Virus record (IMG/VR): IMGVR_UViG_3300045125_000053
Location: 1-56,920 of that record
Direction: 5' to 3' (one strand)
DNA: 56,920 bases
Source: a virus
Taxonomy: Duplodnaviria; Caudoviricetes
Below, piece by piece: positions 1,788-54,917 of the stretch; the first letter of the stretch is position 1; each line of letters begins with the position of its first letter. Position numbers and translations under genes: made by a program. Below the pieces are notes generated by a model. It worked only from the letters and a program-made list of their open reading frames with translations. It was not told the origin of the DNA and did not search any database.

Positions 1788-2550
1788 ATGTCCACAGCAT
1801 TAGCAAAATTAACAAGTTCAATGGCTTCAAAGCTTAACATTGAAGCGCTCTGCACAAGAATTAATGCAAACCTTAAAGGCGACTGCTTTTAAAGGCTCTG
1901 TATCAGATGCCCAAATGACAGCACTGATGCTGGTTGCACAACAGTACGGTTTAAACCCCTTCACCAAGGAAATATACGCTTTTCCTGACAAACAAAACGG
2001 CATAGTTCCTGTCGTTGGTGTAGACGGTTGGGCGCACATTATCAACGACCATCCTCAATTCGATGGTATGGACTTTGGGCAAGATGATGAGTCATGCACT
2101 TGTTCTATCTATCGCAAAGACCGTTCAAGACCAATAACTATTACCGAATACGCAAGCGAATGTAAGCGTAATTCTGGGCCTTGGCAATCACACCCCAAAA
2201 GAATGCTGCGCCACAAGGCAATGATTCAATGCGCTAGATTGGCTTTTGGTTATTCAGGAATTTATGACCCTGACGAGGCTGAGTCATTTATTGAAAAGAC
2301 TACTCCAATACGAAGTTAAAAGCGTCACAGACAAACAAGGCGATGCCTACCAGGAATATGAGGACGAAGCTTTGCCAAGGCTTGTTGATGCAGCTAACAC
2401 CAGCACAACAGCTTTAACAGATGCTTTCAAAGCAATTCAGACTTGCGACCACAAAAAACATTATGGACTAAGCACTCAGCAATGCTTAAACAATTAGCCG
2501 CTGACGCTGATTCAAATGTAATCGAGAGCGACCAAAATGCAGCAGCGTAG
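1788..2550 (+). CDS. bet: Phage recombination protein Bet (lambda Red-beta single-strand annealing protein), with indels
   Basis: MSTALAKL..., TLKATAFKG, QYGLNPFTKEIYAFPDKQNGIVPVVGVDGW and PWQSHPKRMLRHKAMIQCARLAFG closely match lambda Bet motifs. Confidence 0.93.
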
Positions 2551-3148
2551 CCCTGAATGGTATGCGGCTAGAGTCGGTAAATTAACAGCGTCACGCATGA
2601 ATGACGCTGTTGATGTACTCAAAAAAGGCGGCGAATCTCAGGCTCGTATTAATTACCGGCTTGAATTAGCTACCGAGAGACTAACCGGGGTACTTATCGA
2701 AAAATACACTAACAGCGCAATGCAGTGGGGCATTGATAATGAACCTAAAGCTAGAGAAGAATTCGAGCTTTTTAACGGGTGAATTTGTAACTGAGGTTGG
2801 TTTTTATGACCACCCAGTAATAAACGGTACTGGCGCTAGTCCTGATGGATTAGTAGGTGTTAACGGTCTTATTGAAATCAAATGCCCAACGTCACAGACT
2901 CATCTGCAATGGGTTTTAGATAATAAAGTTCCAGAAAAGCATGTTAATCAAATGCTTTGGCAAATGGCTTGTACTGGGCGTAAGTATTGCCATTTTGTTT
3001 CATTTGATCCACGAATGCCGCCTGAGCTTCAACTATTTCACAAAGTATTTGAGCCGAAAGACTCGGAAATACCAGATTTAGAACAAAGAGCAATCGACTT
3101 TTTATCCAACCGTTGATGAATTGATTGCAAACATTTATAGCAACATAA
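2537..3148 (+). CDS. exo: YqaJ/lambda-exonuclease family protein, with indels
   Basis: QRSPEWYAARVGKLTAS, AMQWGIDNEP, GASPDGLV, IEIKCP, QMLWQMACTGR; lies next to bet. Confidence 0.92.
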
Positions 3149-3160
3149 AAGGTTAAAACA

Positions 3161-3568
3161 ATGAGCAATGTATTTAGTTGTATAGGTAATGTCGGGCGTG
3201 ATGCTGGAAGTTAAAGCATTACTAAGTGGGCAGTCAGTTTTAAATGTCACTATCGGCACATCGACAGGTTTTGGAGATAAACAAAAACGATTTGGGTGCG
3301 CGTAGCAGTTTGGGGAAAAAGAGCAGAAGGCCAGCTTGTTAATTACTTGAAAAAAGGTCAGCAGGTTTTTGTCTCTGGTGAATTATCGCAGCAGGAATAT
3401 CAAGGCAGCGATGGCAGCACCAAAACGGCTTTAGAGCTTAATGCTTATGTTTTAGATTTAGTGGGCAAGCGTAGTGATAATCCACTGGCAGCGCAATCGA
3501 ATAACGCAGCATCAGCAGAGCAGAATGACAATTTTGCTGATTTTGGCGGCGATGAAATCCCTTTTTGA
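3161..3568 (+). CDS. ssb: Single-stranded DNA-binding protein, with indels
   Basis: IGNVGRDA, VAVWGKRAE, YLKKGQQVFVSGEL, acidic tail ending DEIPF. Confidence 0.92.
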
Positions 3569-3620
3569 TGTGATAGGATAAGACAAGACTCGACGACACA
3601 GAATTTCACAAGACACGACA
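3566..3620 (+). repeat. Pentamer-periodic array (11 units, N-GAY-N) upstream of the RAMP-like gene
   Basis: TGATG TGATA GGATA AGACA AGACT CGACG ACACA GAATT TCACA AGACA CGACA; central A invariant. Confidence 0.8.
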
Positions 3621-3645
3621 ACCTTAATAAAACAGGAAATCCACA

Positions 3646-4203
3646 ATGAAAACAGCAATAGTAAAAATAATAGGATTAAGCCCTTTAGCTCAAGGGAAAT
3701 TCGTACAAGCAGAAAAACTCCCCAAAGAATTGCACAAAGATTATGAAGCGAGAACATGGCGCGAAAAGATGCACTACGACAAAGACAATATTGTATTTAT
3801 TCCATGTTTTGCTCTTAAAAACTGCCTTGCTGAAGCAGCAAAATTTCTATCAATTCAAGTGCCAGGTAAAGGTAAAGCTACTTATACAAAGCATTTTGAA
3901 GCTGGAACTATGGTAGTGCAAAACATGAGTCTTGGAATTAATAAAGATGAGGTTAATCCACAAATAATGTTTGTACCATCTGACGGAGTTAGAGGCAGTA
4001 ATAAACGTGTGGAGAAATACTTTCCGGTAATGCCGGAATGGGGTGGTATTGCTGAATATATGATTTTAGATGAAACCATTACGGAAGATGTTTTCATCAA
4101 CCACTTGAAACAGGCTGGTCAATTTATCGGTTTGGGTTCGCTTAGACCCAGAAATAATGGTTTTTTTGGTAGGTTTGATGTGAAGTTGGTTAGTTTTAAA
4201 TGA
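3646..4203 (+). CDS. Stand-alone Cas7/RAMP-like putative RNA-binding protein
   Basis: N-terminal strand VKIIGLSPL, FIPCFALKNCLAEAA (compare RAMP xIPGSSLKGxLR) and C-terminal Gly loop GQFIGLGSLRPRNNGFFGRFDV; intact 185 aa with RBS AGGA. Confidence 0.75.
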   Translation: MKTAIVKIIGLSPLAQGKFVQAEKLPKELHKDYEARTWREKMHYDKDNIVFIPCFALKNCLAEAAKFLSIQVPGKGKATYTKHFEAGTMVVQNMSLGINKDEVNPQIMFVPSDGVRGSNKRVEKYFPVMPEWGGIAEYMILDETITEDVFINHLKQAGQFIGLGSLRPRNNGFFGRFDVKLVSFK

Positions 4204-4305
4204 CATGACCGGACTTGACTTAATGTGACTAGACAGGACATGACTAGAAATGACCGGACAAGATGGGATCAGACCACAAGCGACATTACTAGACTAAACA
4301 AGACA
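4201..4305 (+). repeat. Pentamer-periodic array (21 units, GAY-NN), candidate guide-like ncRNA
   Basis: TGACA TGACC GGACT TGACT TAATG TGACT AGACA GGACA TGACT AGAAA TGACC GGACA AGATG GGATC AGACC ACAAG CGACA TTACT AGACT AAACA AGACA, then a T-rich tract. Confidence 0.92.
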
Positions 4306-4336
4306 AGTTTTTATTTAATTGAATTGGATTAAAACA

Positions 4337-4819
4337 ATGAATAAGCCAATAGGTGCAACAAGTTTAGATGCAAAAGTATTATCAGAAAAATTGCTTGAAT
4401 TATCTGCTGGTGATTCGATTAGTTATTCAGATATTAATGAATTAATTGGTAGAGATATCCAAAAAAATAGACATATTTTAGCGACAGCCAGAACAATTGC
4501 TAGGCGTGAAAAAGGTTATTTATTTGACTGCATTAGTAATGTTGGCGTTAAAAGGTTATCTGATTCTGAAATAGTTGAAATAGAAAGTGTTAGGCCATTT
4601 TCAAGAATCAAAAGCGCAGTTAAAAAAGGTTTGCAAAATGTCCAATGCGCTAAAGATATTAGCAATACTGACCGGATTAAACAGAATGCAACTATTTCTA
4701 TGTTAGGCACTATCGCTTTATTCACGAAATCGAATGCTGGTGAGATAGTTAGACATAAAACAGAATTCGCTCCAATAGCAACGTCGAAAGTATTGGAATT
4801 GTTTAAACAATGTACTTAA
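4337..4819 (+). CDS. Hypothetical protein with a winged-helix-like N-terminus
   Basis: GDSISYSDINELIGRDIQKNRHILATARTIARREKGYLFDCISNVGVKRL fits a helix-helix-helix plus beta-wing pattern; ATG at 4337. Confidence 0.6.
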   Translation: MNKPIGATSLDAKVLSEKLLELSAGDSISYSDINELIGRDIQKNRHILATARTIARREKGYLFDCISNVGVKRLSDSEIVEIESVRPFSRIKSAVKKGLQNVQCAKDISNTDRIKQNATISMLGTIALFTKSNAGEIVRHKTEFAPIATSKVLELFKQCT

Positions 4820-11398: not shown

Positions 11399-14300
11399 TC
11401 AATTCAAACGCTTATATTCTTTAAGCGCCATATCCTGCGCTTTATCACGCAGCTTTTCAGCTTGATTAGCATACATCTTAGCTTGCCCTATGCGTCCTTG
11501 TTTTTCGGCCTTTGTTGCTGCTGATTGTTTGCCTGCCGCACTAGCATTTAAACTTTTGACTTCTTCGCTTAGTTTAGCTAGCCGTTTTTCTTGTGGTGTT
11601 AGTTCTTCGCCGCGTGATGCTTTAATGGTCGCCTTATCAGCTTTGCCTAACACATTGTAATATAACATCTGTTTCATTCTATCATCGTCTTGCTGCGAGA
11701 CAAAACGGTCATAAAATATTGATGTGGTTTTCTGTCCTCTTGCTTCCTTGGCTGGATTTTCGACCAGTGTTTTCAAGACCTGATTACCAACGGCTGAAGT
11801 ATAACTTCTTAAGAATTCTTGAACCTGCTCAGGATAAGCATTAATCCCGATTCGTCCCAATTCCCGCGCCACGTCTTTGTAGAATTGCGGCGTGTTCTTT
11901 TGCCTTGAATTGACCGGGCTATTGATTCGTCTTTGAATTGCTTGGTTAGTTGGTTGCCGAATGTATTAACGTCCATCGCTACATTAATAGCGCCCTTGCC
12001 TATTTGCGGTGTCATGGTTTGCACAATAAAGGTTAATGGGTGCTGGGCTATTGGTGCTTCAGAAGGCGCGACTGGTGTCATGGTTTTGACCCATGACTTA
12101 ATGATTTCGCCCACAGTATCTTCAATCGTCTGACTGCCTTTTGCAGCCCGAACAATATTAACCGCATTGCTCCAGGCGAGCTGCTGAATTCCAAAGCCAA
12201 CCGGGACTTTTAAATAGCGCCCTTTTTCACCCAGCGGAATCATGATATTGCGGTCAACGGCAAAGTTACTCTCTTTGTCCATCCGGTTAACGCCTAATTC
12301 GTCGTCATCTTCGCCGGACCTTAGCATTGAGTATAAAACCATACCCGCTACCAGATAAGCACCATAGCGGTATTGTCCTCTAGGTGTTGATAGCGTTTGA
12401 ATCAACTGGTGTGCACCATTAGCAGTAGGCTGGGCAAACATATAAAGGCCACGCACCATACTAAGACCCGCGCCTTTCTTGTGGAAGTTCATTAAGTTTA
12501 ATGTGGTGGCTGCTGCCGATTCTGAATCAACACCATTATTCACTAGCGATTTGTAAACGCTAAACGGTGCGATAACTTCAAAGACGTTGTTATAGCCTTC
12601 AACAGCCTTCATAGCCTTAGTGGATAGCTTAGTGATGCCTTCAAGCTTTTTAAGCAGTTCGCCTTTATCTGGGGATAAGTAATCGCCCCAGGTGGCAAAA
12701 GCACCTTCATTAATAAAGTCTTTGAATAGTTTTACATCGGGGTTAGTATCGTCAACCGTAGCGGTAACGCCCTTGGTTATCATGGGCGCAATCTTGGCAA
12801 TAGCGCCGATATTCATTGCATATTTCAAAGCATCGCTACCAACTTTATTCATGTCGATATTTTCATATCCTTTGATTTTGCGAGTACGAATATTCTCGGT
12901 GCGTTCAAATACGTCACGGATAGCGTTGACTGGGCCAAATGTCGGCATTATCTGTGTTGCCATTCTTGAATAGAACCGCGTCACTGGTGCAAACACATCA
13001 AGCATAGACGGCACAGTCTCGACATTAGCTTTACGCAAAGCATCAATAGCCGCTTTATTATTCAGTTCATAAACGAATGTTGTGCCATTCTTCCGCACAA
13101 TAATGCCCGAATCACTGGGGCGAATACCTTGGCGTTCAGGTTTGCGCTGCCAGCCGGTTTCGTCGGCAATTTCTGTCATGGCATCTTTTTCAGATAGGCC
13201 GGCAGCAACTTTATCGTCAATCATTTGCTGATAAGTTTCGCCCAGGTAATCTTTAAATTTTACCCATGCGTGATAACGTGCTGATTTCTCGATTTGTTCA
13301 AAGCTTGAATCAATGCCATTTTGTGCAATAGATTGAGTGCGGCCTTGTAATCGTTTATCTTTCGATTGATTGACGTTGCCGACATAGAATAAGCCATCAT
13401 CTGAATCGTCACGCAGCATATCTTTAGTATCGCCAGTCAATGGCACATAGAACCCGCTATCATCGAACTTGTCAGCCATTTCCTGCGTGACTTTGCCATT
13501 GGCTATGTCTTGCTCTAGCTTCCATTTGTTCATTGAATAGACGCGCTCTGCTACGGTTTTAATTAGGTTTACATCAACCTTACTTTCAATCTTAGCCATC
13601 AAAGCTTTAGCGGTGTAGTTGTTATACCCACCAGCTAGGCCGATATCATGCTTCTCGTTTACCGGGTCAACGAATTGCTGCTTATTCATTGCTTCATCAA
13701 AGGCAACCAATAATTTATCAGCCTTGCTTGAAGCAGTTTTTAAGCCTAACAATTCAGCATTATTTTCACGGTCAGTTTTTTGCGGGTCTGGAATAAAATC
13801 TTGAACTGCTTGTGCGGCTTCATCGGCTGCCGCTTCATACTGTTTTAACAAACGATGATTGGCAATCTGTGCATATTTCAGCGTCATCCATTGCCCTGCC
13901 ATTTCTTTCGACCAGTTGAAGTTTTTACCTGTTGCCACGGCTATCGCTTTAATGCCTTCGGCAATATCTTTACCGAAACGGTCCATTGCTTCTTTTTCAA
14001 AAGCTTGCTTCCGTCCTGGCGCTAAATCCTTTGCTTGCACAATCTTAGCGGCTTGCAATTGGTCGGGTAATTCGCGCATAGCCACATCAAATGGGCGAGT
14101 GGAATCGACCAAGTAAGTGACAATCTTGTCGTTCAAATCTGAGGTAGTGAAATCACGTTTAGGCATCTCACCCGAATCAATTACACGCTCTAAGTCGTTG
14201 GCGCTGGTGGGGTTGTTTTCGGATTGGCGGAGGACTTTGCTGAAGCGGATATCGTTGTTTGTTGATGAGAATGCGCCAGTGTTTCCTGTGGCTGATTTGA

Positions 14301-17300
14301 TTTGGTTAGCATTAAAAACGATGTATGAATCTTGATACCTTCTTGGATCGCCTTTTTCAAAATTAGTATCAGGCTCGCCGGTGTTTTTATAAATAATTCC
14401 ATCATATCCAAGCTTTAACAGTTCACTTCTTAATGCTTCCTGTTTAGCTTCTAATGTCCCCTCGTCTATATAGGCGATAGACATTTCTTCCCTAATATTT
14501 TGGCCTGTTCTTTTGTTATGTAGCCATTATCAAAAATGGCGGTAACAGTTTGACTAGGAACACCAAAACCAACATCAGGAAGTCTAATAATATTTTTAGC
14601 ATTTAAGTATAAGCTAGCTATTCTTGGATCACCTTCGGCATACTCTAGCCGATTAATAATGAAATTTGCTTGCCGTGTTGTTCCGAAATGATAACCAATA
14701 TCACCTTTATTAAATTCTGTAAAATCAGCTTTAGTCCCATGATAAACAACCAAAGGCTCCCCATTCTCATCAACAACTTTTGATGCGTTCTCAGGGTCAT
14801 TTTCCCAGTCACCGAACCATGCCTTGAATTCAGGAGTTCTAACCTGTTTCCATTGAACAGGGTTAAGGTTTGATGGTTTGCCGTTGGGGCTTTTAATACA
14901 CCGCTTCCTTGCTTACTCGCCAACAAATTCGCTGATTCTTTGTAGTCTGGATCGAAAGCGGCGTTGATGCTGCGGATATTTTTAGGATCGAATACAACGG
15001 TTGTGTTTACGTTTCGGTTGAATGATCCAACATCATTGATAACATTAATTCCATCATAGCCATTATCAATGAAATATTTAGTGATTATGCCTCTAAGCTT
15101 TACTGCTGTTGCGTTTTGATCTGATTTCCATAAATCCATAATCATATCAAGATGCTTGTCTATTAATTCATCATTAACGCCTTTTTCAAAGGATTTATCA
15201 AATAAGAACCCAAACTTTTTATCATAATCAATGCTTTTCTTTTCCCATGAATCAAATAGCTTTCTAAATTCACCATCAACCCGTAAAAGTCTTGCAACAT
15301 CATCTCGATGGACAAACTTCATGACATTATTTAAGTTTATAAATACTGGTATTTGAATACCATTATCAGATAGCCCTATACTTTTATCATTGCTCTTTAA
15401 AAATACACCGTCCGGCATTCCGTTGTCAGATGCTCTAGCGCCTAAACGATTTATATCAAAGCCATTTTTATAAATTGATTCTTCGTTCTTACTCTCGGTT
15501 TCGTGATAATAAATTTTATCAACATCAAACCCCATAGCCCTAGCACGTTCCATCCTTGCCTTTTGACTCATATCAAGCCCTTTAGCTTTAGCTCTTAGCC
15601 ACTCTGTAGCCTCGCCAATATCATCGCCCTCATAGCCAGCTTTTTTAGCTGATATCATTACCCCATCACCCACACGATCAACCGGATCAAACATTAAGCT
15701 ATCAGGTGCTTTTCTAAGGGCTGAAGTTGCCATAAACACAATATCTTCAGGCGTCAATCTATTTGCCCATTGCAGCATTTGATTCTTGCTAATGCTTGGG
15801 AAGGTGTTTGCAAAGGCGCGTAACGCTTCTCTAAACCATGCTTTAATGCGTTGGGTAATGCTTAGTTCTGGATGATTCTCAACTAGGTACGCGGCTATTT
15901 CGCTGTTAACGTGTTCGGGTAAAGTATCTTCAGGGACTAAGGCTTTAGCGGCTTTTACCTTGTCATCAGTGGTTGATAGTCTTTCGACTTCAGCCATGAT
16001 AGCTTCGTATTGTTTTTTGGTTTTTCCTAGCTGAAGTGCATGCTCACCAATCTCATGCAACGCCAAGCCTAGAATATTTTTATTCTGGTCGATGTTATCC
16101 GCTACAAAATAGCTGGTATCGTTGGCAGGATTGTAGAAAGCTTGGATATCGCCATTCTTTGAATACTTGGCTTCAATCTTGATATCGTTTTCATCAAAAA
16201 TGACATAGTTGAAATTTAAGTCTTTCTCATTGTCAATGTCGGCTATTTTTTTATTAGCAGATTCTATTCTGCTATTTAGCTCCGCTATATCATTGTTTCT
16301 TCTATTGAAGAATGCTGGCAATAACCCTGGATAGTCTTTGTTTCGATCAATTTCAGCTTGAATTTCTTTTACTTGTGAGCTTAGTTCGCTTACTAAATCA
16401 ACTAACTGTTTTCTATCGGCTGTTCTCGATGCTTGACTACGGCTAGAACCATCTAGGTATTTTATGCCGCGTATGCCGATGCTGTTAAGGTAGTCTGAGG
16501 CTGCTTTGGCTGAACCTAGTTCATTTGCAACAAATTTTTCATAAAATGAATTGCCGGTTTCAAAATCAACAAACCCCTCAAAAGATTTGCCATTGATATA
16601 TTTGTCATAAAATTGTTTTGCTGCGGATTTTACTCTCTCACTCTGCTCAGATAGCGGCTTATCCCATAACAAATACTCGTCTTGTTCGGGGGCTAGGTCT
16701 ACTTCGTAGAGTCTACCCAGAACTATTTTTATTTTGTCTTTAGCTGTATGGTTTTGGACTATCTCGTTTAATTTTTCAAAATATCCATCTTTATAACTTT
16801 TGTCTTTTGTCCATTCCTCGCCATTAATAAAATCATTAAGCCATGCTTTTGCATGTTTTTTAGCCTTAGATAATCCATCATTTTTAATTAGGGCTAATGC
16901 TTTAAATTCGCCTGAACCCCTATAATAAGTAGCTCCTTTGTAATTAAAAGAACTAATATCGTAAGATAAATTATCCCTATACCACTCCGCAACCTCCCTA
17001 CTACCCGCAAAATAAAGCCCCCAACCATAAACCTGCGCCCCCTCGCCGCTTCCGATCTTATCCATTGAAAACTTGTCGTGATCGTGTGGCGAACCATGCC
17101 ATACCTTGTGAAACTTAACCTGTCCACCAATCAAGTCTTTAGCTTCACTAGCATTAATAATTTTAAACTTCCCAGTCCCCATCAACCTCTCAGTAAACCC
17201 ACTACCGAATTTCCTGTCTAATACGCGGGTTGTTTCTTTGGCTAGGGTTTCGGGGGTGTGGGGGTTAGTCGTTGGGGATGCTTCGGATTTCTGAATATTA

Positions 17301-20300
17301 TCATCAGGCTTAATCCTCCCCTTAGCCTTCTCCACGCTGCTCTGAGGCTTGAGTTCTTCTTTGGGTTGTTGCGCTAGGATCTCTTTCTTCAACGCAATCC
17401 GATCTTTAAGCGGCTGACTGTTGAATTCTTCGGGGGTTATGGTGTCGCCGTTTAGGTTGACTGGGTTGTTTAGGGTTAGGTCTTTGAATGGCTCAGCACG
17501 TTCAACCTTTTCCATCGGGTTGGACATACCAAACACATCACCAGTCTTTGGTACATTCCCCGCCATTTCATCAAATACATCATAGCCGCTTGCTTTTTCT
17601 GACCGAATTAACTCGTCTTTTCTGGCTTGCTCTGCGTCTTGTTTTGCTCGCTTGGCTGCTTGCTGCTCTCTATCTCTGAGTTCTTGTTCTGTGTAGCTTG
17701 AAAGCGCCTCAACGCTATCTTGGCTAGATGCTGATGTTCTTCGGGCGTTATTTTCTTGGATGATGTCATTTAGGTCCTGCTCCCATGAAGATATTTCATT
17801 TTCAGGAAATTGGTTTTTATTAATCATGTCTTTCAACATGCTGTAATGTTCGCTACCAGCCTCTTTAGCCAGATTAAGCAAACCTTCAACACGTTGAACA
17901 TGCTCGGCATGATCTTGGTTTATTTTTTCTTCATATTGGATTTTAGCTAAGTTTTCATAGCCTGCATTGTTATAAATCTTTTCGTTTTGGTTTATCGCTC
18001 TGGAAACTTTATCAACTAAATCGTTTGCATCAGCAATGTCAAAGTTATGGCTAGTGCGTAATAACTCAGCCATTTCGTCATAGGTTTTTGCATTCTTTGA
18101 ATTATGGAATACCCGCTTAATGCCATGACCACGTTTAGATAATGCCGCGTTATCAATTCCTTGTCTTAATGCTTCACTGGCTTTTAAGCCGCCTATTTTT
18201 GATATTGCTGATAATAAATCATCATTGTCATTAACTATTGGATTCTTTTTGGCGTGGCCTTTAATAAATCTTTTTCTGGTTTTGAATCATAAGTATCAAT
18301 AGCCCGTTGCATGACTTCTTTATCCCATGCTTGACCAGTCTTTAGTTCAAATTTTCCAGTATTGGCGTTTGTCTTGATCAGTTTGTTTTTTGCATACTGA
18401 TCATATATTTTTCGGCATCCTGTTTAGAAAATCCAAATTGTTCTTGAACGCTATCAATAAAAGAATTTTGAGCATTTACAATTCTTTGGGCGATTGGTTT
18501 AGCGGCAACTGATAGCTTAAACTGCTGCACCAAATAATCCGTAGTATCACCTATAGACATATCTTTAGTCGGTGTTTCAGCATTGGTCAACCTACTATTA
18601 TCTTCAGAATACCACTTTCTAAAATCAATCAACTCTTGTGTATTTAGATCACCTTTATCTTGTGCGCGTCTGTATGAGTCCTGCTACTTTTCTAAGTGCT
18701 GCGCTATTGGTGCTATCACTTAAAATATCTTTTACAATGGAATCTGCGTCTTTTGATATTCCTACCGCTTCCGCTGCACCTGATACCGCTTGTCCAGTTT
18801 GACCAGCTCCCACCTCCGTTGCATTTCCTGCTGTATTTGTTGCGGTGTCATTGAGTGGGATTTTAGTTTTACTTTGGACATTGGCGATGTTCTCTTGAGC
18901 TTGTTGCTGTAATTTAGTTACTTCTTTAATGGGCAGTTGCAGATAGGCGCGAGTCTGACCTATCGGTTTAGTCAGATTGTCATAGACATATTTTGACTGC
19001 TCAGGTGTTAAGTTGCCTAAAGGTGGTAGGTCAGGACTAGCAGGTTGCTGCTCGGACTGTGATGCCTGATTTCCCACTTCAGGTATTGAGGGTGCGGCCT
19101 GTGTCGTTGGTGCTGCAACCTCTTGCTGCTGTACCTGTAGGCGCTCTGGATTATCAGTCGTTTGAGCCTGTTCGATGGTGGGCGCTTTCGATCTTTGAAC
19201 TGGAATATTAGCATTATCTAATATAGTTGTTTCAGTTTGTAACGCAGTATTGGCATCTTGAGCCGGTTCATTGATCGTCGGCTCTTGACTACCTGATTCA
19301 AGGTTAGCGGTGTTCGCTTGATCTTGACGTATTTCTGGTGCTTGCTGAACCGCATTTAGCAGCCCCGCTTGTTCTTGCCCGGTGTTCTCATTGGTTGTTT
19401 CTGTGGCTGATTTTTGGGTTTCATTGATAAAGTCCTGTAAAGCAGATGATTGAGATTGAGCACCGACGGTTTCCTGCGGAATAATCCCTGCTGTGTCATC
19501 AGCAATGGGTTCCGGTGTAGAAATCGCTGATTCTCCTGGGTTAAGTATTGTTTCAGCATTTATTGGTAAATCGGCTGGGGCAATGGTCGATAACTGACTT
19601 TCGGGTATAACCGGATTTTCAGCTTCGATTTGCGTTGCAACATTTTGTGTTTGTACTTCATTGAGTAAACGGTTTCCTTCTGTTACGTCTATGATTGTAG
19701 AATTAACAGCATTGCCGAATTGCTGTATAGCCTCGTCAGCGCTGCCGGTATTTAGGATGCTGCTGCTAATCCGGTCATTCGCTCTGCGGATTGCATCGCT
19801 TGGGCTGAGTGGATTTATTTCAACTTCATTTGGCTGTGCAGGTTGATTTCTGAACTCGTTTAAAAGTTCTTCCATTGGGCGGTTGATTGGTTGGGTTGGT
19901 TCGGGTTTATTAAAAGCCCCGCCAACTCCACCCATAACGCCGCCACCAATACCCCCATAAATGCAGCAGTACGGGCTTGTGATAACGATTCAGGTGATAA
20001 GGCGTCATTACCCTTGCCGTATTCTTCAGTTAGCGTCTGTGCGCCTTCTGTAGCTGCTTCCATCGGTGCAGCCATTAAGCCTGTCGCAGCGCCACGCATT
20101 AACGGATTAGCCAGCTTAGAGCCGAATTTACCCGTTAAAGCATCCAGCCCTAATTTATCTCCGGCAAAATCCAAAGCAGTTGCGCCAATGGTTGCTGCTG
20201 CACCTTGCCCTAATTCGCCCGGTGTTAATGCTCTATTTTCTTCGGCTGATTTCTGCGCTAATCCTCCACCAATTTCGCTGCCTTCCATAGCGGCTGAACT

Positions 20301-20918: not shown

Positions 20919-23152
20919 TTATTGTTGCCAAGCGTGGCCGGGTTGCGCTCTACCTATTGGTTCAGTCGGTGGCGTTGTGGCTTGAATCTTTTTGTGCTGT
21001 AACTGCATGTCGTTATGGCTTAACACGGTTTGCACGTTTAGTTTTTGGGCAGTTTCAGCTAATCGAGCTTTTACTTGGTCGCTGCTCTTTGCTAGGTCTG
21101 CATTAATCTGCTGGATAGAAATATTTTCATTCTGGCTTAACTCCATGACCTTCATGTCACGAGTAAGTATTGCCAGTTGCATTTCATGTTCGCGCTGACG
21201 TTGATTTTCAGCCTGTTCAAACTGCAACTTCATTTGCTGCATTTGTTGATCGGCTTGCGCTTTTTGCTGTTCAGTTTGTGCGCGTATTTGGGCAACTTGC
21301 AAGGATGGGTCTTGCGGTTGTTCGCCTTGTTGTTCCTGCATCTTAGCGAGTTCTTCTTCAGAGTATAAAATTGTCTCTGAATTAATCCGGTGCGCCTTCA
21401 ATACTTCTTTCATGTATTTAGCAGGGTCAATTCCGAAAGCAGGATTCGACAACATTGCACCCATTTGAATCAATGCCATTTTGGAAGCGTCACGTTCAAA
21501 GAATGAGGTTGAACCCTTCGCATGAATCTGAAAGTCCCCCTTATCTTCATCGTCGCCATAAATCAATAGCCATTCATAGAATCGTTGAATATGTGGCACG
21601 ATTACCCGATCGTCAAATAACTTGGCTATATTGCGCCGTGTTGCGCCTGAATTCTGCTGCAATATCTGCATACCACCAACGGTATCAGGTGCGCTGCCTT
21701 GTTGTCCTTGGAGCATTAACGGCATACCTGTTACATCTTCCGCCATCTTTTGAGCAAGCTGAAATAGGTTGATTAATTCTTGCGAGATGATTGGAATTAC
21801 AATAGGCTGGACGGCTTGCTGCGCATTTTGAATCGGAGAATCTGGACTTAATCTTAAATGGTATTGCGCCCAATAACGATAGGGCCACCACCTTCCATTT
21901 CAACACCTTCACCCAACACCAGGATAGGAGAGCCACCAATCCCGGCATTGTCGAGCATATTGCGGATAAGCGCGTTTATCATGCGCTGTGGTTCGCGTAT
22001 TTGACGAGCCAAGCCTATGCCGGTCCATGTGCTGCAACGTGGTTGATAAACCATTACATCGAAAGGAAATTCACCAGAATCTAATACTGACCGAGCCGCT
22101 TTGATGACATGCCCATTCACGATAACCATAAACACGTCAATAGCTTTATGATCTTCTTTAATGTCAATGTTTACGGCTTGCAAATCGTCCTTTGTTGCTG
22201 TGCCGTAGTAATACCAAACATCATATTTATCATCATGATTTTCAAGCTTATTTTTTTCTTCATAAACTCGATTTGGCCCTTCTTTCAGTACACGCTTAAT
22301 CTGCTCGTCAAGATAATAAGGCGTTCCATCTTCGCCAATCGTACCCATCAATTCGCGCAGTTGCTTTCCTGATAGAGTATCTTTTTCAAATACAAAGCTT
22401 CCGTTATGGATATTTTCACAGCAAGCAGGGTCAGGATAAAAGTTTCGCGGGTCAATACGTTTTGATGCTGGTTTGGTTTCAATAACAATTTCTAGCTGCA
22501 TTGCGCCTTGACCAGCTTCGGTAAGTTTTTTGCTTTTGCGTTTTACCGGGAATGGCCCTTTTAAAATTCCAGTGCCAAGTTTAACGGCGTCTTGAATCAC
22601 TTTTCTAACTTCAGCATTCCATTGACATTCAATCAGCCAATCTTCAATTTTTAACTGCGCCGACTCTGCTTTTTTATCTGCTTCAGCAAGCGCCTGTTTA
22701 GCGAGCTGCCCAGCGTCTTGCGGTCCTTGCTGGGTTTCCATCATCATACCTTTTTGCTTTGCTATATCCGCTAATTCAGGAATAGGCGTAGGCTTTAAAT
22801 CAAAAGGCAATTCTTCAATTGGCATTAGCATTTCAGCTAATGAGGCTGATGCATTTTCGACGTAAGGACGCGTGATATTTAGGAAAACATTGCTGCCAGT
22901 GCGTTTAGGCTGACGAGTGCCAAAGCCTGATTGTCTATCGGCGGTGTCTTTGGTGATGAGGGTATTTGTATCAAGACGGTTAGCTTCATCAACTCCCTCA
23001 TAGAATTCTTCATCTTCTCGCCAAATTTCTTCGATACCTGAAGCACGTCGAGCCTTAATAGCTTTTTCCTTTTTGGCTAATATTTTCTTGCCTAGTTTGT
23101 CGAGCTTTTCAAGTCTATCAAGTTGCTCGTCAGTGAGCTGCATTTCGTCCAT
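20919..23152 (-). CDS. Portal protein (P22-like podovirus type), with indels
   Basis: Directly downstream of TerL; VFLNITRPYV, LGTGILKGP, GIGLARQIREPQ, EDVTGMP; Gln-rich C-terminal helix. Confidence 0.85.
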
Positions 23153-25100: not shown

Positions 25101-25378
25101 TACATCATTCCTTGTGCTGCCATTGGTGGCTTTTTAGCCGGTGCTTTCTCGCCTAAGCCAGCATTAAACATTTGATTCAGATAATCTTCTGAAGTATCGC
25201 TTAATAATTCACGCACTTTGTTTAAGGCTTCGTCCAAAGACTTGAAGGCTCTTTGTTCTTCAACACCGCCTTCCTCCATATTTTCTTGCGGATTCTCTTG
25301 GTCGTTTTGTTCAACGATAAAAGTACCATCGCCATTTGCGGTAATTGTAACGCTGACTTGATTAGTAGTTTCGTCCAT
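25100..25378 (-). CDS. Hypothetical acidic protein
   Basis: AAGGA RBS; MDETTNQVSVTITANGDGTFIVE. Confidence 0.65.
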   Translation of the reverse strand: MDETTNQVSVTITANGDGTFIVEQNDQENPQENMEEGGVEEQRAFKSLDEALNKVRELLSDTSEDYLNQMFNAGLGEKAPAKKPPMAAQGMM

Positions 25379-25821
25379 TATTTTTCCTTAGTTAGCACAA
25401 CATGTTGCCGGTGCTTTCTCGCCTAAGCCAGCATTAAACATTTGATTCAGATAATCTTCTGAAGTATCGCTTAATAATTCACGCACTTTGTTTAAGGCTT
25501 CGTCCAAAGACTTGAAGGCTCTTTGTTCTTCAACACCGCCTTCCTCCATATTTTCTTGCGGATTCTCTTGGTCGTTTTGTTCAACGATAAAAGTACCATC
25601 GCCATTAATAATTCACGCACTTTGTTTAAGGCTTCGTCCAAAGACTTGAAGGCTTTTTGTTCTTCAACACCGCCTTCCTCCATATTTTCTTGCGGATTCT
25701 CTTGGTCGTTTTGTTCAACGATAAAAGTACCATCGCCATTTGCGGTAATTGTAACGCTGACTTGATTAGTAGTTTCGTCCATTATTTTTTCCTTAGTTAG
25801 CACAACATGTTGCCGGTGCTT
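25137..25821. repeat. Nested tandem duplication (about 2.5 copies) of the 25100-25378 gene region
   Basis: Near-identical blocks ~25137-25406, ~25407-25605 and ~25606-25821; GCCGGTGCTT at the boundaries. Confidence 0.9.
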
Positions 25822-45528: not shown

Positions 45529-45636
45529 CGTATTCAGTTGCAGTATTGCAACATGGGATTGGCGTTCCAAAAATACAACGGCATAATGCCGCGAAAAGCG
45601 GTTTTTTTATGTCTATCATTTAGCACTTCATTTTAT

Positions 45637-45707
45637 GTCGGGCTAAGTGGGCAGTCGCAAGGCTGGCCGGTCCGTTGTTCCGGTACGCCAACCCACTTAG
45701 TCCCGGC
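45637..45707 (+). ncRNA. C4-type antisense RNA (copy 1)
   Basis: Multi-stem RNA closed by GGGCTAAGTGGG/CCCACTTAGTCCC; unpaired CCGTTGT and ACGCCAA are complementary to ACAACGG and TTGGCGT found upstream (45559-45581) and downstream (45715-45752). Confidence 0.88.
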
Positions 45708-45760
45708 TCCATGATTGGCGTCATGTTGTTGGGTTCAAAATTTTTACAACGGTATCAATT

Positions 45761-49125: not shown

Positions 49126-49178
49126 GGATTGCTCCAGTACGGATGTTTAAAACCACCGACCAAAACGACCAAGATTTG

Positions 49179-49251
49179 GGCGGCGAACGTATGCGGGTTG
49201 GTCGACCGGGTACTGGACCGGCAAGCTTCACAGCTTCCACATACGCCCACC
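49179..49251 (-). ncRNA. C4-type antisense RNA (copy 2)
   Basis: Minus strand GGTGGGCGTATGTGG..CCGGTCCAGTACCCGG-TCGACCAA-CCCGCATACGTTCGCC; targets GTACTGG and TTGGTCG upstream (49305-49326) and downstream (49134-49172). Confidence 0.85.
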
Positions 49252-49358
49252 ATAAATGAAGGGCATAAAAAAAGTCATGAACCTTGCGGCGCATAACTAT
49301 TGCGCCAGTACCATACGAGCGACCAAGCCCGCCTGCCCAATGTGGGGCAGTAAGCAAA

Positions 49359-51216: not shown

Positions 51217-53290
51217 TTATCTGGCTTTTTCAAAGAATCTGATTCTGTGACCATCATTAACCCTAACTTGCTTAGGGTGATAGCCAAGTCTACGCATAAC
51301 TGCACCAATGCGCGTTTGATCTGCTCTGGTGTGTTTTTGTGTTTCTATCCTGAAGCAATCCCTTAATATGAACGATGTAGTTAACACTTTAGGATTGTCC
51401 GATATCGCTTTAACGATCTTAAAATCAGATAACCAAGCAATAATGTTGGTTTCCCATGAATCCGCGTCATATCGTTTGTCTTGTTCCGCTTCCGCACCTG
51501 GAATAATCCACCAGTTATCTACAGTCTTAAACAATTGGAGAGCTTCAGCCCATAATTGATCACGTATTTTGCTAATGGCATTAACATCTATTTGGCATTC
51601 AACACGCACTGGCAAGAAACGTCTTGCACCAGTTTCGTCATGATTCCAGTCATTTTTATTTGTGCCTCCAACAAATATATTTTGGCGAGGAATTTAATAG
51701 TATTCCTGCCGTAAGATGGTCGATAATGATCTTCTCGTTGAGTTAATACCTGCTTAACCCTTGTCCTGTCGGCTTTTCCAAATTGATCAAGTTCACCAAA
51801 GTCTGAACACCAAACGCCACGCAATGCCATGAAGAAATCCTTATCGTTAATAGAGTTGGTAACTTCTGCATACCATTCGCCAAACAAAACATTAAACAGG
51901 GTTGACTTACCAACACCTTGCTTGCCTTCAAGAATGGTCATAGTGTCAACCTTGCAGCCAGGATTCATCACCCTAGCAACTGAAGATATAAATAATGAGC
52001 GACTGGTTGCGCGGTGATAGTCATCATTTGGAGCATCACAAAATTTAGTAAAGAACGAGTCTATGCGTTTGATGCCGTCCCATTTCAACGAATACAAATA
52101 ATCTTTTAATAGGGTGGAATTCAGCCTCTTTTGATAATAAAGAGATAGCTTCATAAATATCGCTAGTTGGGACTTTTTCAGTGAAATATTCTTTTCTAAA
52201 AATGACTTTAATACGAATAATTGAGGCATCATCAATATCAATGCCGTTAAAAGAAGCGTTGCCTGACATGGCATTACCCCCTGATTCGACCAAGGAATTC
52301 AGGCGCATTTCTTAAAATAACAACAATGTTATGAACCCTAACTTGTATTTGTTCTGTGCCATTATCTTTATGCTTGATTATTAATTCAGATCGCCAATTT
52401 GATTTTTCAATTGAGAATGCACTACGAACAGCATCAAGCCCTTGCGCTACATGCAAATCATTAAAATCACCACCATTAGGCGCGACAACGACATCACCTT
52501 TCACTGAATTGGCCGCGTTATTCGCCGCTATTCTTCCTGGGTCGTCATCGTCAGCGGCAATGGTAATTCTTGCTTGTTGTGCTTTAACCCGAATAATCCT
52601 AGCAACTCGCTCCATATTCCCTGATGAGAACGTAACCACTACAGGTAAATTAGTTGCCTCTCGTATTGATTGGCAGGTAGCAATGCCCTCGCCTACAATG
52701 ATGTGTTCAGCATTGGCAATATCGCCAAGGATATGAAAACAGCTTGATGTTTGCGCTTCTGGAATAAACAGCTTTTTATAGCCATCAGGCACAACTTGCA
52801 GAGTTCGCAACTTCCCATCACGATCAAAAGCCGGTATCAATATTCCGGTTATTTGCCATTCTTTTGAGAATCCAAGCGCAGTAGAATTCAAATCTTTAAC
52901 GAATCTAACACCTTCAGGAATTCCAATACCTTTGCGGGTTAAATATTCTGAATTGCCATTAGTTGATGCAGCATCATAAATTCGCTTTGCTCTGCGAGCT
53001 GCATCATCAGCTATTTCGTACTGCCTCTTGTCTAGCGATTTGCTTTTGCTTTTCGATAGCGTCCCAATCTTCCTTAGTCAGTTTATATCCTGATCCATTC
53101 GACCAGCCAGACTGGAAATTATCCCGCCATGATCCAAATGCACCGTACTTCCCGTGAAGTACATACCAAGCATCTTTACTATGCCGCTTATGATCTGATG
53201 ATGGAAAGCGATGAATTTTACCGTCAGCAATACACCCTTCTTGGGTACTGAATATCCTATCTCTGCAATTGCCTGCTCTAGCGTACTCAT
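51217..53290 (-). CDS. Fused TOPRIM primase and VapE/VirE-family helicase, with indels
   Basis: YLTRKGI, GEGIATC, IAADDDDPG, GDFNDLH; WDGIKRI, PGCKVD, Walker A GKQGVGKST, RPSYGR, TGARRFLPV. Confidence 0.88.
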
Positions 53291-54917
53291 GCTTGCATTC
53301 TCCACCAATCTTTTTGTATGTCGTGGGATATGCTCTTTAGCTTCATCCCCAAATTCTTGAATAATCTTGTGAAAAACTGATCCTCTTTATATCCTTTCTC
53401 TCTTGCAATACGCATATGCTCCCTGAATCTATTTCTCACCTTAACCGCCATAGGCAAATCGTCTGAACTGTATAGCGTCAGCATGTCGGCGGTTGTTTCT
53501 GGAATATTTGTCTCTGAGCCTTCTTCAAAATGTGCAGTAGCATCGTCATACAAGGCGTGACAAGACGGGCAAAAACCCTGCTTGATGAACGCTATGTCAT
53601 CAATATTTTCTTTAGCCATGCTGAGTTTGAAAGGCTCATTACATACTTTGCACACGCCAAGGCCACAACCAGGACAAGAAGAATATGCTTTCGCTACTTT
53701 GCTTTTGAGAATGTTTTTTACATTGGGAATATAATCGGTCAATATTTTTTCTTGAACATCTGCCAACCATGCGCGAGGTTCTGGATCGTAAACCATGTCG
53801 CAGCATTTGCATGTTTCAAGCGTATGAGCCTCATTCTTTTTCTTGCGCTCTTTTTCGCCTAATAACGTCCATTCACGATGGATATGTGGCGCACCGTGTT
53901 CTTCAATACAACCTGCGTGATCCAAAATAATCGCGCCAAGTTTTGATGATGCTGGGCGCATAATTCGCTCAACTGCTTGAAGGTATAAACTAATTGATTT
54001 TGTTGGACGCGCCAAGATACAGCATTCAAGTTCAGGAAAATCAAAACCCTCAACCAAGATCATGCAATTTGCAACAACCTTAATAATTCCTCTGCGCCAA
54101 TCACGAATGATTGACTCACGCTCTTGAATACACATTCCGCCATGAATCGAGGCAGCGGAAATGCCATTATTAAGAAATTCTTGTGCAATATGCTCCGCAT
54201 GTTCGACACCACACGCAAAAATTACCGTTAGCTTCCCATCAGCGTGAGCTTTCCAGTTCGCATAGATATCACCAATCAACTTAGGCTTGTCCATGACTTC
54301 CCTGAAGCTGATCTTCCGCATAATCGCCTTTTGATTTTTTGACGCCAGTCAAATCAAATGTGCCGCCAGTGTAAATAATTGGCTTCACTAAATGACCTTG
54401 ATTGATTAATTCTGGAACGGTTGTAACAATGACTATTTCATTAAAAATATCATCAAGACCTTTTCCATCTAGCCGTTCAGGAGTTGCTGAAAGCCCAAGC
54501 ACCTTTGCCGATGGATAATTAACCAAAATATCTCGATAACTTTTTGACGCTGCCCGATGTGCCTCATCAATAATAATTAAATCAGCCGGTGGAAACTCAC
54601 GCTTAATCAATGTTTGAATTGATGCAACATTAACTTTTGCATCTGGATTAAACATTTTTGCGCCACTCATAATTATTGAATAATTGAATACGCCGAAATC
54701 TTCCAGTTTTGCTGCACATTGAGTAATTAATTCACGTCGATGAGCGAGAAGAGTATATATTTTCCTTTTTGGACAGCACCTTGAATAATTCGTGATGCAA
54801 TAACCGTCTTCCCTCCGCCTGTCGGAATGCAAAGAATCTGTGAAGAAATTCCCTTCTAATATTATTTTTAAGTTCTTCCACAGCATTTTCTTGATATTCT
54901 CTTAGTATTGGTGTCAT
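53287..54917 (-). CDS. Superfamily 2 DEAD/DEAH-box helicase with a C-terminal Cys-rich region, with indels
   Basis: LREYQ, PTGGGKT, DEAH, LGLSATPERLDG, EGFDFP, ARPTKS..YLQ. Confidence 0.92.

Follow-up and report, generated by a model that had tools for sequence, protein, structure and literature searches.

The locus described here raises the question of whether a single phage gene of Cas7/RAMP type, set between two tracts of GAY-NN pentanucleotides, belongs to an RNA-guided system, and how such a system would accommodate a triplet other than GGY. VIPR systems are CRISPR-like gene silencers guided by RNA; to our knowledge no smaller RNA-guided DNA recogniser has been described, and GGY is the triplet of every tested system. 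The window, that is the whole stretch of DNA analysed, is an entire phage contig of 56,920 nt, with genes for terminase, capsid, portal, a CI-like repressor and anti-repressors. By its protein, its architecture and its family-level code, the locus is a VIPR member that is not canonical type II, and we consider it probable that the window carries a phage VIPR system with a non-canonical GAY scaffold.

Organization of the vipr locus

The vipr gene (3646..4203, + strand) is an intact open reading frame for a RAMP protein of 185 residues, and contains the three motifs named for it in the initial annotation. It lies directly 3' of bet/RecT, YqaJ exonuclease and ssb (1840..3568, +), whose reading frames are split and which form the early recombination module of a temperate phage. 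An upstream GAY-NN array of 11 units, a candidate vrRNA (3567..3621, +), has its first unit in the ssb stop codon and its last unit 24 nt before the vipr ATG. A downstream GAY-NN array of 21 units in a single register (4202..4306, +) is followed after 30 nt by the start codon of a vap1-like accessory gene (4337..4819, +; 160 residues). In both arrays, unit 1 shares nucleotides with the TGA stop of the gene before it. The accessory gene most likely starts at ATG 4337, and not at TTG 4319, because this Met is invariant in the alignment of the partner family.

Both arrays flank vipr on the same strand and combine a fixed triplet with variable NN. Exact GAY is present in 8 of the 11 upstream and 16 of the 21 downstream units, with 7 and 10 different NN dinucleotides, respectively. 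Position 2 is A in 11/11 and 21/21 units (32/32 when pooled), and at position 3 of the 32 units C accounts for 72% and T for 22%. Neither GGY nor the other VIPR patterns NNNGG, YNNNG or NNNNG were found at these arrays. A scan of both strands ranked them as the top two GAY-periodic stretches of the window. The best stretch matches in 10 of 12 units, against a best of 5-7 in 100 dinucleotide-preserving shuffles that were scored for any two-base+Y motif. As 0/100 shuffles reach the observed arrays, the 5-nt periodicity described initially is borne out. A chance microsatellite was rejected as a reading of the arrays.

None of the 76 window ORFs of at least 90 residues matched a cas-family Pfam model, and no CRISPR-like spacing was observed among the 20 largest of the 25 direct-repeat families, in agreement with the earlier statement that no cas1, cas3, cas5, cas6 or repeat-spacer array was recognised. 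The virus thus carries vipr and vap free of cas genes and of a CRISPR array, which is the composition of a minimal VIPR locus. A remnant of a CRISPR Cas7 was rejected as a reading of the locus. Among the direct repeats of the window, a 200-nt exact one (25137-25336 / 25407-25606), with a third 77% copy, lies just 5' of the small terminase gene and is either an assembly artefact or terminal redundancy.

An Rfam search gave no match at the vipr locus. Elsewhere in the window it returned two C4 antisense RNAs (RF01695, above the gathering score), at 45631-45713(+) and 49176-49257(-), each just 5' of an anti-repressor gene. A sigma-70 scan yielded 2 sites, versus 6.2 expected, none of them 5' of the arrays. 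Neither a shared structured tail nor a convincing promoter could be recognised; the sequences 3' of the two window arrays differ, and the common 3' feature of these 11- and 21-unit arrays is their AA-rich terminal units.

A sister element of about 92% identical DNA, recovered in two freshwater runs from a single study, has vipr, vap and the initial 12 downstream units in common with the window. The match covers 4202-4261, after which 315 letters of the sister replace 36 of the window; the two also diverge before 3645 and after 4811. Because of these differences outside the cassette and of the 315-for-36 swap, the vipr cassette looks modular, and the position of the swap suggests that the 21-unit tract possibly comprises two guides (12 + 9 units). 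Several genes of the window are split between frames, namely bet, exonuclease, ssb, portal, primase and helicase (1840-3568, 20922-23152, 51220-54886), through indel errors or decay. A large polyvalent protein (11812-18073, - strand) with ART-PolyVal and LPD38 domains is likewise split, into three ORFs.

Fold of the Vipr protein

Compared with the Vipr of SUSP1 (PDB 36PP), the window protein gave an E-value of 3.8e-5 as a single sequence and 3.1e-10 with a 61-sequence profile. An hhalign comparison with the homologue from Felixounavirus tootiki produced a full-length alignment (97.3%, E 2.2e-11), and phrog_4652 is common to the window Vipr and the Felixounavirus and Pseudomonas phage homologues. 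Pfam and PADLOC held no model for Vipr or for its partner. We built an AF2 model (pLDDT 90.5) and searched it with Foldseek, the best matches being type VII Cas7 and Csm3 complexes (E 9e-8, TM about 0.55). The Cas7/RAMP-like nature proposed for this gene is thereby upheld, and sequence and model together support its assignment to the Vipr homologues, with a RAMP fold like that of Cas7. The model comprises a predicted RRM core, a thumb hairpin at about residues 104-129 and a G-loop at about residues 158-177.

The available text of the structural preprint assigns the reading of G1 in SUSP1 Vipr to H17 and D177, and that of G2 to R138 and W178 (10.64898/2026.04.26.720927). The H17, R138, D177 and W178 residues align to about G17, F126, S165 and L166 of the window Vipr, so that the GGY-reading residues are absent. 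The pocket of the window protein includes A15, G17, Q106, F126, S165 and L166.

The vap1-like partner

The profile of the partner family matches both type II-like vap1 proteins, with E-values of 2.5e-5 and 5.4e-4 (Z=100,000). The PHROG of type II-like vap1, phrog_5926, was matched by 9 of the 41 partner family members; the window protein alone gave no match. A tblastn search located the partner close to vipr in 62 of the 106 other loci. These data point to a distant vap1 homologue, the accessory gene of type II systems. The model of the partner (pLDDT 92.7) has an H-E-H-H-E-E topology, with an N-terminal winged-helix-like part and a long helical hairpin. The wHTH-like character assigned to it initially is suggested by this predicted topology, but the fold matches are weak: Foldseek returned none at E<=0.001, its weak rows include ScpB, PurR and GntR-type regulators, and the comparison with PurR, itself a weak fold match, gave Z 7.6 with an rmsd of 2.8 over 68 aligned residues. 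In six loci (L040, L050, L064, L084, L089 and L101) the vap1-like gene is found upstream and not downstream, about 1.1-1.6 kb ahead of the vipr stop. Pseudomonas phage LESphi2 (L106, OQ594955.1) carries an unannotated vipr and vap1 pair at 2001-3073, beside a CI repressor.

Relatives and their scaffolds

The window Vipr has 1,668 homologues in the length range searched. We collected loci of relatives using alignments as queries, a single-protein locus search having given none. Loci were fetched for the best 80 of 198 viral matches, for 24 from 25 genome matches and for the best 80 of 408 metagenome matches; a second viral set (best 80 of 126 matches) consisted mostly of the same contigs as the 198-match set. 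The initial annotation had proposed inspecting the flanks of homologues for 5-nt arrays, and 231 of the 261 loci, including the window, have both an array call and the needed residues. They were reduced to 118 representatives of <85% identity, 69 for training and 49 held out.

Scaffolds among the 118 representatives are GGY (60), GAY (29), CGY (12), GTY (9), CTY (3), AGY (3), CAY (1) and ATY (1). ATY, CTY and CAY scaffolds occur in a Nanoarchaeia MAG (L102), cyanobacterial MAGs (L088 and L100) and a Methylococcaceae MAG (L099), and the Vipr clade extends over many bacterial phyla and one archaeon. Arrays lie on both sides of vipr within 150 nt in 67 of 118 representatives, and 76 of the 91 upstream arrays in the family end <=60 nt from the start codon. 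Whatever the triplet, the NN of the last three units is AA in 46-61%, versus about 10% further in (344 arrays from 117 relatives). This bias suggests a constant nucleation end that replaces the structured tail.

The closest array-bearing relatives among the collected loci (L162, L163, L168, L197 and L208) are all GAY with Q106/S165, and cluster with the window. L001/L164 also has these residues but lacks an array call. The GGY arrays of near relatives often contain GAC units inside or at their end, and arrays can be mixed at the second position, as in L017 (56% A / 35% G) and L054 (69% / 22%).

Covariation of pocket residues with the triplet

We scanned alignment columns on the 69 training rows, keeping the 49 other loci aside as a held-out check. 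Positions 106, 165 and 15 scored highest for base 2 of the scaffold, and position 126 did so for base 1. Over the 118 representatives, G-second arrays go with R165 in 75/75, S15 in 75/75 and E106 in 74/75. Conversely, all 27 proteins without R165 have a second base other than G (24 A, 3 T), in 16/16 training and 11/11 held-out loci, the held-out queries having been enriched through their search patterns for S165 proteins, though not for array type. G makes up <=4% of second positions in 21 of the 23 non-R165 GAY loci. Y126 occurs with C first in 13/13 (held-out 5/5), and D106 with T second in 4/4. Exceptions are found among R165 proteins, 16 of 91 of which stand beside non-G arrays (A- or T-second; 6 of these GAY), and among F126 proteins, 3 of 105 of which go with C first. 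The GGY relatives of the clade have S15/E106/R165, and the window Vipr A15/Q106/S165 and F126.

The covarying residues 165 and 126 are located in the known pocket, as they align to D177 and R138 of SUSP1. The mapping is crossed: position 165, aligned to the G1 reader D177, follows base 2, and position 126, aligned to the G2 reader R138, follows base 1. Given the strand ranges 104-111 and 121-129 of the model, residue 106 would face residue 126 across the thumb hairpin.

Trees built after removal of 12 pocket-region columns, which are quick and poorly resolved, scatter the traits, with 15 changes for non-R165 and 11 for Y126. On such trees a single origin of GAY was rejected (p-AU 0.0002, 69 rows), as was a single origin of non-R165 (p-AU 0.0075, 118 rows). 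Recombination among vipr genes could also cause this scatter. Independent pairs on well-supported branches number 5 and 3 on 118 rows, none of them wrong-way and too few for significance; on 69 rows there are 2 and 1, with significance out of reach.

Target code in the relatives

The initial annotation had proposed that the NN dinucleotides together spell a gapped target. We compared 416 distinct guides with 165 loci (2.2 Mb) whose arrays had been masked. Windows of 10 units that matched perfectly (20/20) numbered 2 when one base was skipped and 0 for skips of 0 and 2, with 0/1,248 in shuffles. Both perfect matches are in frame on vipr genes, one per strand, which points to DNA as the target. 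In this small database (2.2 Mb) a clear target was thus obtained for only 2 of the 416 guides. Skip-3 matches from a scan with unmasked arrays were discarded, being self-matches to these arrays.

The GAY guide of L198 (2399-2468) matches 24/24 on codons 9-20 of the vipr genes of L191, L194, L205 and L217, antisense and with the wobble base skipped; its last two units are unmatched in these sister genes. The L198 vipr itself matches its guide in 18/24, owing to a Lys-to-Gln change, a switch of codon family at two Ser codons and another at one Arg codon. Relative to its sisters, 4 of 12 codons are altered at positions 1-2 in the footprint, versus 6-15 of 165 outside, and differences among the four sisters in the footprint are confined to third positions. 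L198 counts as one GAY case, because its four targets are close kin and not independent events. Ser and Arg (with Leu) codon-family swaps are the only synonymous changes that defeat a wobble-skipping code.

The CGY guide of L092 matches 22/22 on G-loop codons of other vipr genes and 19/22 on its own gene. Being identical to the sense strand, it could pair only with template DNA. The one-nucleotide skip rule thus holds, as judged from these sequence matches, in the GAY relative L198 and the CGY relative L092. The gapped code envisaged initially is in this way retained for a GAY relative, but with a one-base skip in reading. In L092 and in L051 (GTY), the first array directly behind vipr spells the 3' end of other vipr genes, the own genes matching in 19/22 and 14/22. 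L051 and L063 (CGY) reach 18/20 in frame on vipr, which is suggestive only, as 1/416 shuffles and one skip-0 match equal 18. A 19/20 match of the L068 GAY guide, in frame at the beginning of the ORF that follows vipr in L189, was not counted, 3/1,248 shuffles reaching 19.

The guides of the window itself gave no target. Four 8-unit skip-1 seeds found 32, 18, 5 and 49 exact matches in IMG/VR, none of which extends beyond chance. In its own genome at skips 0-3 the best matches were 13/18 and 16/24, both at skip 1, and the collected relative loci held no target. At the protein level, matches to the window's own ORFs, 131 homologues and the locus ORFs were no better than shuffles. As these searches require exact seeds or span little sequence, they are compatible with a target lying elsewhere.

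Proposed mechanism and alternative explanations

By homology to SUSP1, Vipr would polymerise on the RNA with one subunit per 5-nt unit, burying GAY and presenting NN, on arrays that are presumably transcribed with the early operon. The NN pairs would read double-stranded DNA in steps of two bases followed by a skipped one, as the matches of the GAY relative indicate, and probably do so at the window locus as well. The last 2-3 units, usually AA, would provide a constant end. By analogy, the complex may silence genes of competing mobile elements, including a rival vipr, helped by the vap1-like protein. Expression, binding and targets of the window locus, as well as orthogonality, are what we infer from these comparisons.

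GAY may fit a remodelled second-base pocket, in which A15/Q106/S165 stand in place of S15/E106/R165; the covariation is observed, and causation is its probable interpretation. In a broader reading, which we put forward tentatively and hold to be possible though somewhat short of an even chance, the code is rewritable: E106 and R165 would specify G second, their loss A, D106 T, and Y126 C first. Many independent switches would then have produced mutually orthogonal VIPR systems that escape rival or satellite 'solo' guides borrowing or decoying Vipr, the window phage having one such GAY system. If true, scaffold diversity could be explained by avoidance of the guide hijacking that has been described for solo vrRNAs.

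The main competing explanation is a VIPR system with a relaxed pocket that accepts any base 2, with arrays drifting to GAY by concerted evolution and R165/E106 decaying later, so that no orthogonality results. The A- or T-second arrays beside 16 of 91 R165 proteins, the mixed arrays of L017 and L054 and the GAC units often found within or ending GGY arrays of near relatives favour this view, and the independent pairs, just 5 and 3, fall short of significance. Against this, G is dominant in 0/27 once R165 is lost and is nearly excluded from the second position of 21 of the 23 non-R165 GAY loci, and the pairings of Y126 with C first and D106 with T second recur. GGY>GAY was moreover among the motif perturbations in SUSP1, and such perturbation is said, in the text available, to abolish silencing (10.64898/2026.04.26.720920). 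We consider a relaxed pocket rather unlikely.

The arrays might alternatively work chiefly in cis, as leaders of the operon mRNA to which Vipr binds for autoregulation or translational coupling, and not as DNA-targeting guides. Their short distances to the start codons (24 nt for vipr, 30 nt for vap), the similar placement of most upstream arrays in the family and the failure to find a tail or target at the window locus would suit this role. It is nevertheless highly improbable, since the leader-positioned GAY array of L198 spells a rival's gene in 24/24 with self-escape, the L092 guide is a sense-strand sequence that could pair only with template DNA, and the NN positions are highly varied. 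Similarly improbable is that the locus is an inactive copy decaying in a degenerate prophage, or part of an assembly rich in errors, an idea prompted by the six genes split between frames: vipr and vap are intact, both arrays keep their register, and the sister element retains the vap region as well as vipr (P0121, 97% identical at the protein level).

Comparison with known systems

The accessible parts of the SUSP1 papers describe one subunit per unit, a triplex R-loop, transcriptional silencing and help from vap1 (10.64898/2026.04.26.720920; 10.64898/2026.04.26.720927; 10.64898/2026.10.15.759431). Like the type II VIPR of Escherichia phage SUSP1 and the Pseudomonas fulva prophage (PDB 36PP), the window has a Vipr RAMP of about 20 kDa and a vap1-like gene without cas genes, 5-nt arrays on the same strand that combine a fixed triplet with variable NN and a position-3 pyrimidine, and a G-loop arginine, R167, aligned to R179; 1-nt skip reading is supported in its relatives. 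The window Vipr is, however, about 27-30% identical to that of SUSP1, its scaffold is GAY and not GGY, and, unlike in SUSP1, an array is placed between vipr and vap. Type II arrays consist of 9-16 units and carry an invariant, structured tail at the 3' end; those of the window have 11 and 21 units with AA-rich ends, a pseudoknot-type tail not being evident.

The resemblance to the Cas7/Csm3 backbone subunits of Class 1 CRISPR lies in the RAMP fold revealed by Foldseek (E 9e-8, TM about 0.55). In contrast to these systems, the window has no other cas genes or repeat-spacer array, and uses a 5-nt gapped code instead of a contiguous spacer.

The vipr-targeting vrRNAs of SUSP1-family phages, as covered in the available part of that preprint, resemble the relatives' guides in being directed at early and late codons of a rival vipr, and self-avoidance was reported for vrRNA-targeting guides (10.64898/2026.10.15.759431). 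Those vrRNAs are GGY and from phages of Enterobacteriaceae; the similar behaviour observed here is that of GAY and CGY (weaker: GTY) relatives, not of the window's guides.

As alternatives to GGY, the text of one preprint gives only NNNGG, YNNNG and NNNNG, and its figures or tables may include the window clade (10.64898/2026.04.26.720920). In the accessible portion of another, 21 clusters whose triplets are non-canonical, GAC/NN and CAC/NN among them, are described beside Vipr-like folds, and GAC/NN is accepted as a divergent VIPR (10.64898/2026.10.21.760802). The VIPR-type architecture with a variant GAY triplet, to which the initial annotation had pointed, is supported by Vipr homology and arrays, and its GAC/NN form was thus already in print. 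The window likewise has GAC/NN repeats beside a Vipr-like fold, and its locus is most likely one of the kind reported there. As far as that portion of the preprint goes, its case consists of co-location and fold similarity only, with residue covariation, target decoding and a test of the skip rule not given. Our literature search, outside which most subscription journals lay, found no VIPR paper beyond the four bioRxiv preprints cited, and no residue code or target decoding for non-GGY arrays in what was accessible of them.

A triplet that changes together with a few RNA-contacting residues hints at natural versions that do not cross-react. If few residues set the triplet, natural orthogonal Vipr/guide pairs could serve multiplexed control, and the scaffold would be engineerable. 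While GAC/NN arrays beside Vipr folds are already known from the text of the preprint (10.64898/2026.10.21.760802), the present analysis adds a candidate residue code and, from comparison of natural sequences, evidence that the skip rule survives a change of scaffold, and so turns a catalogued oddity into named, testable point mutations.
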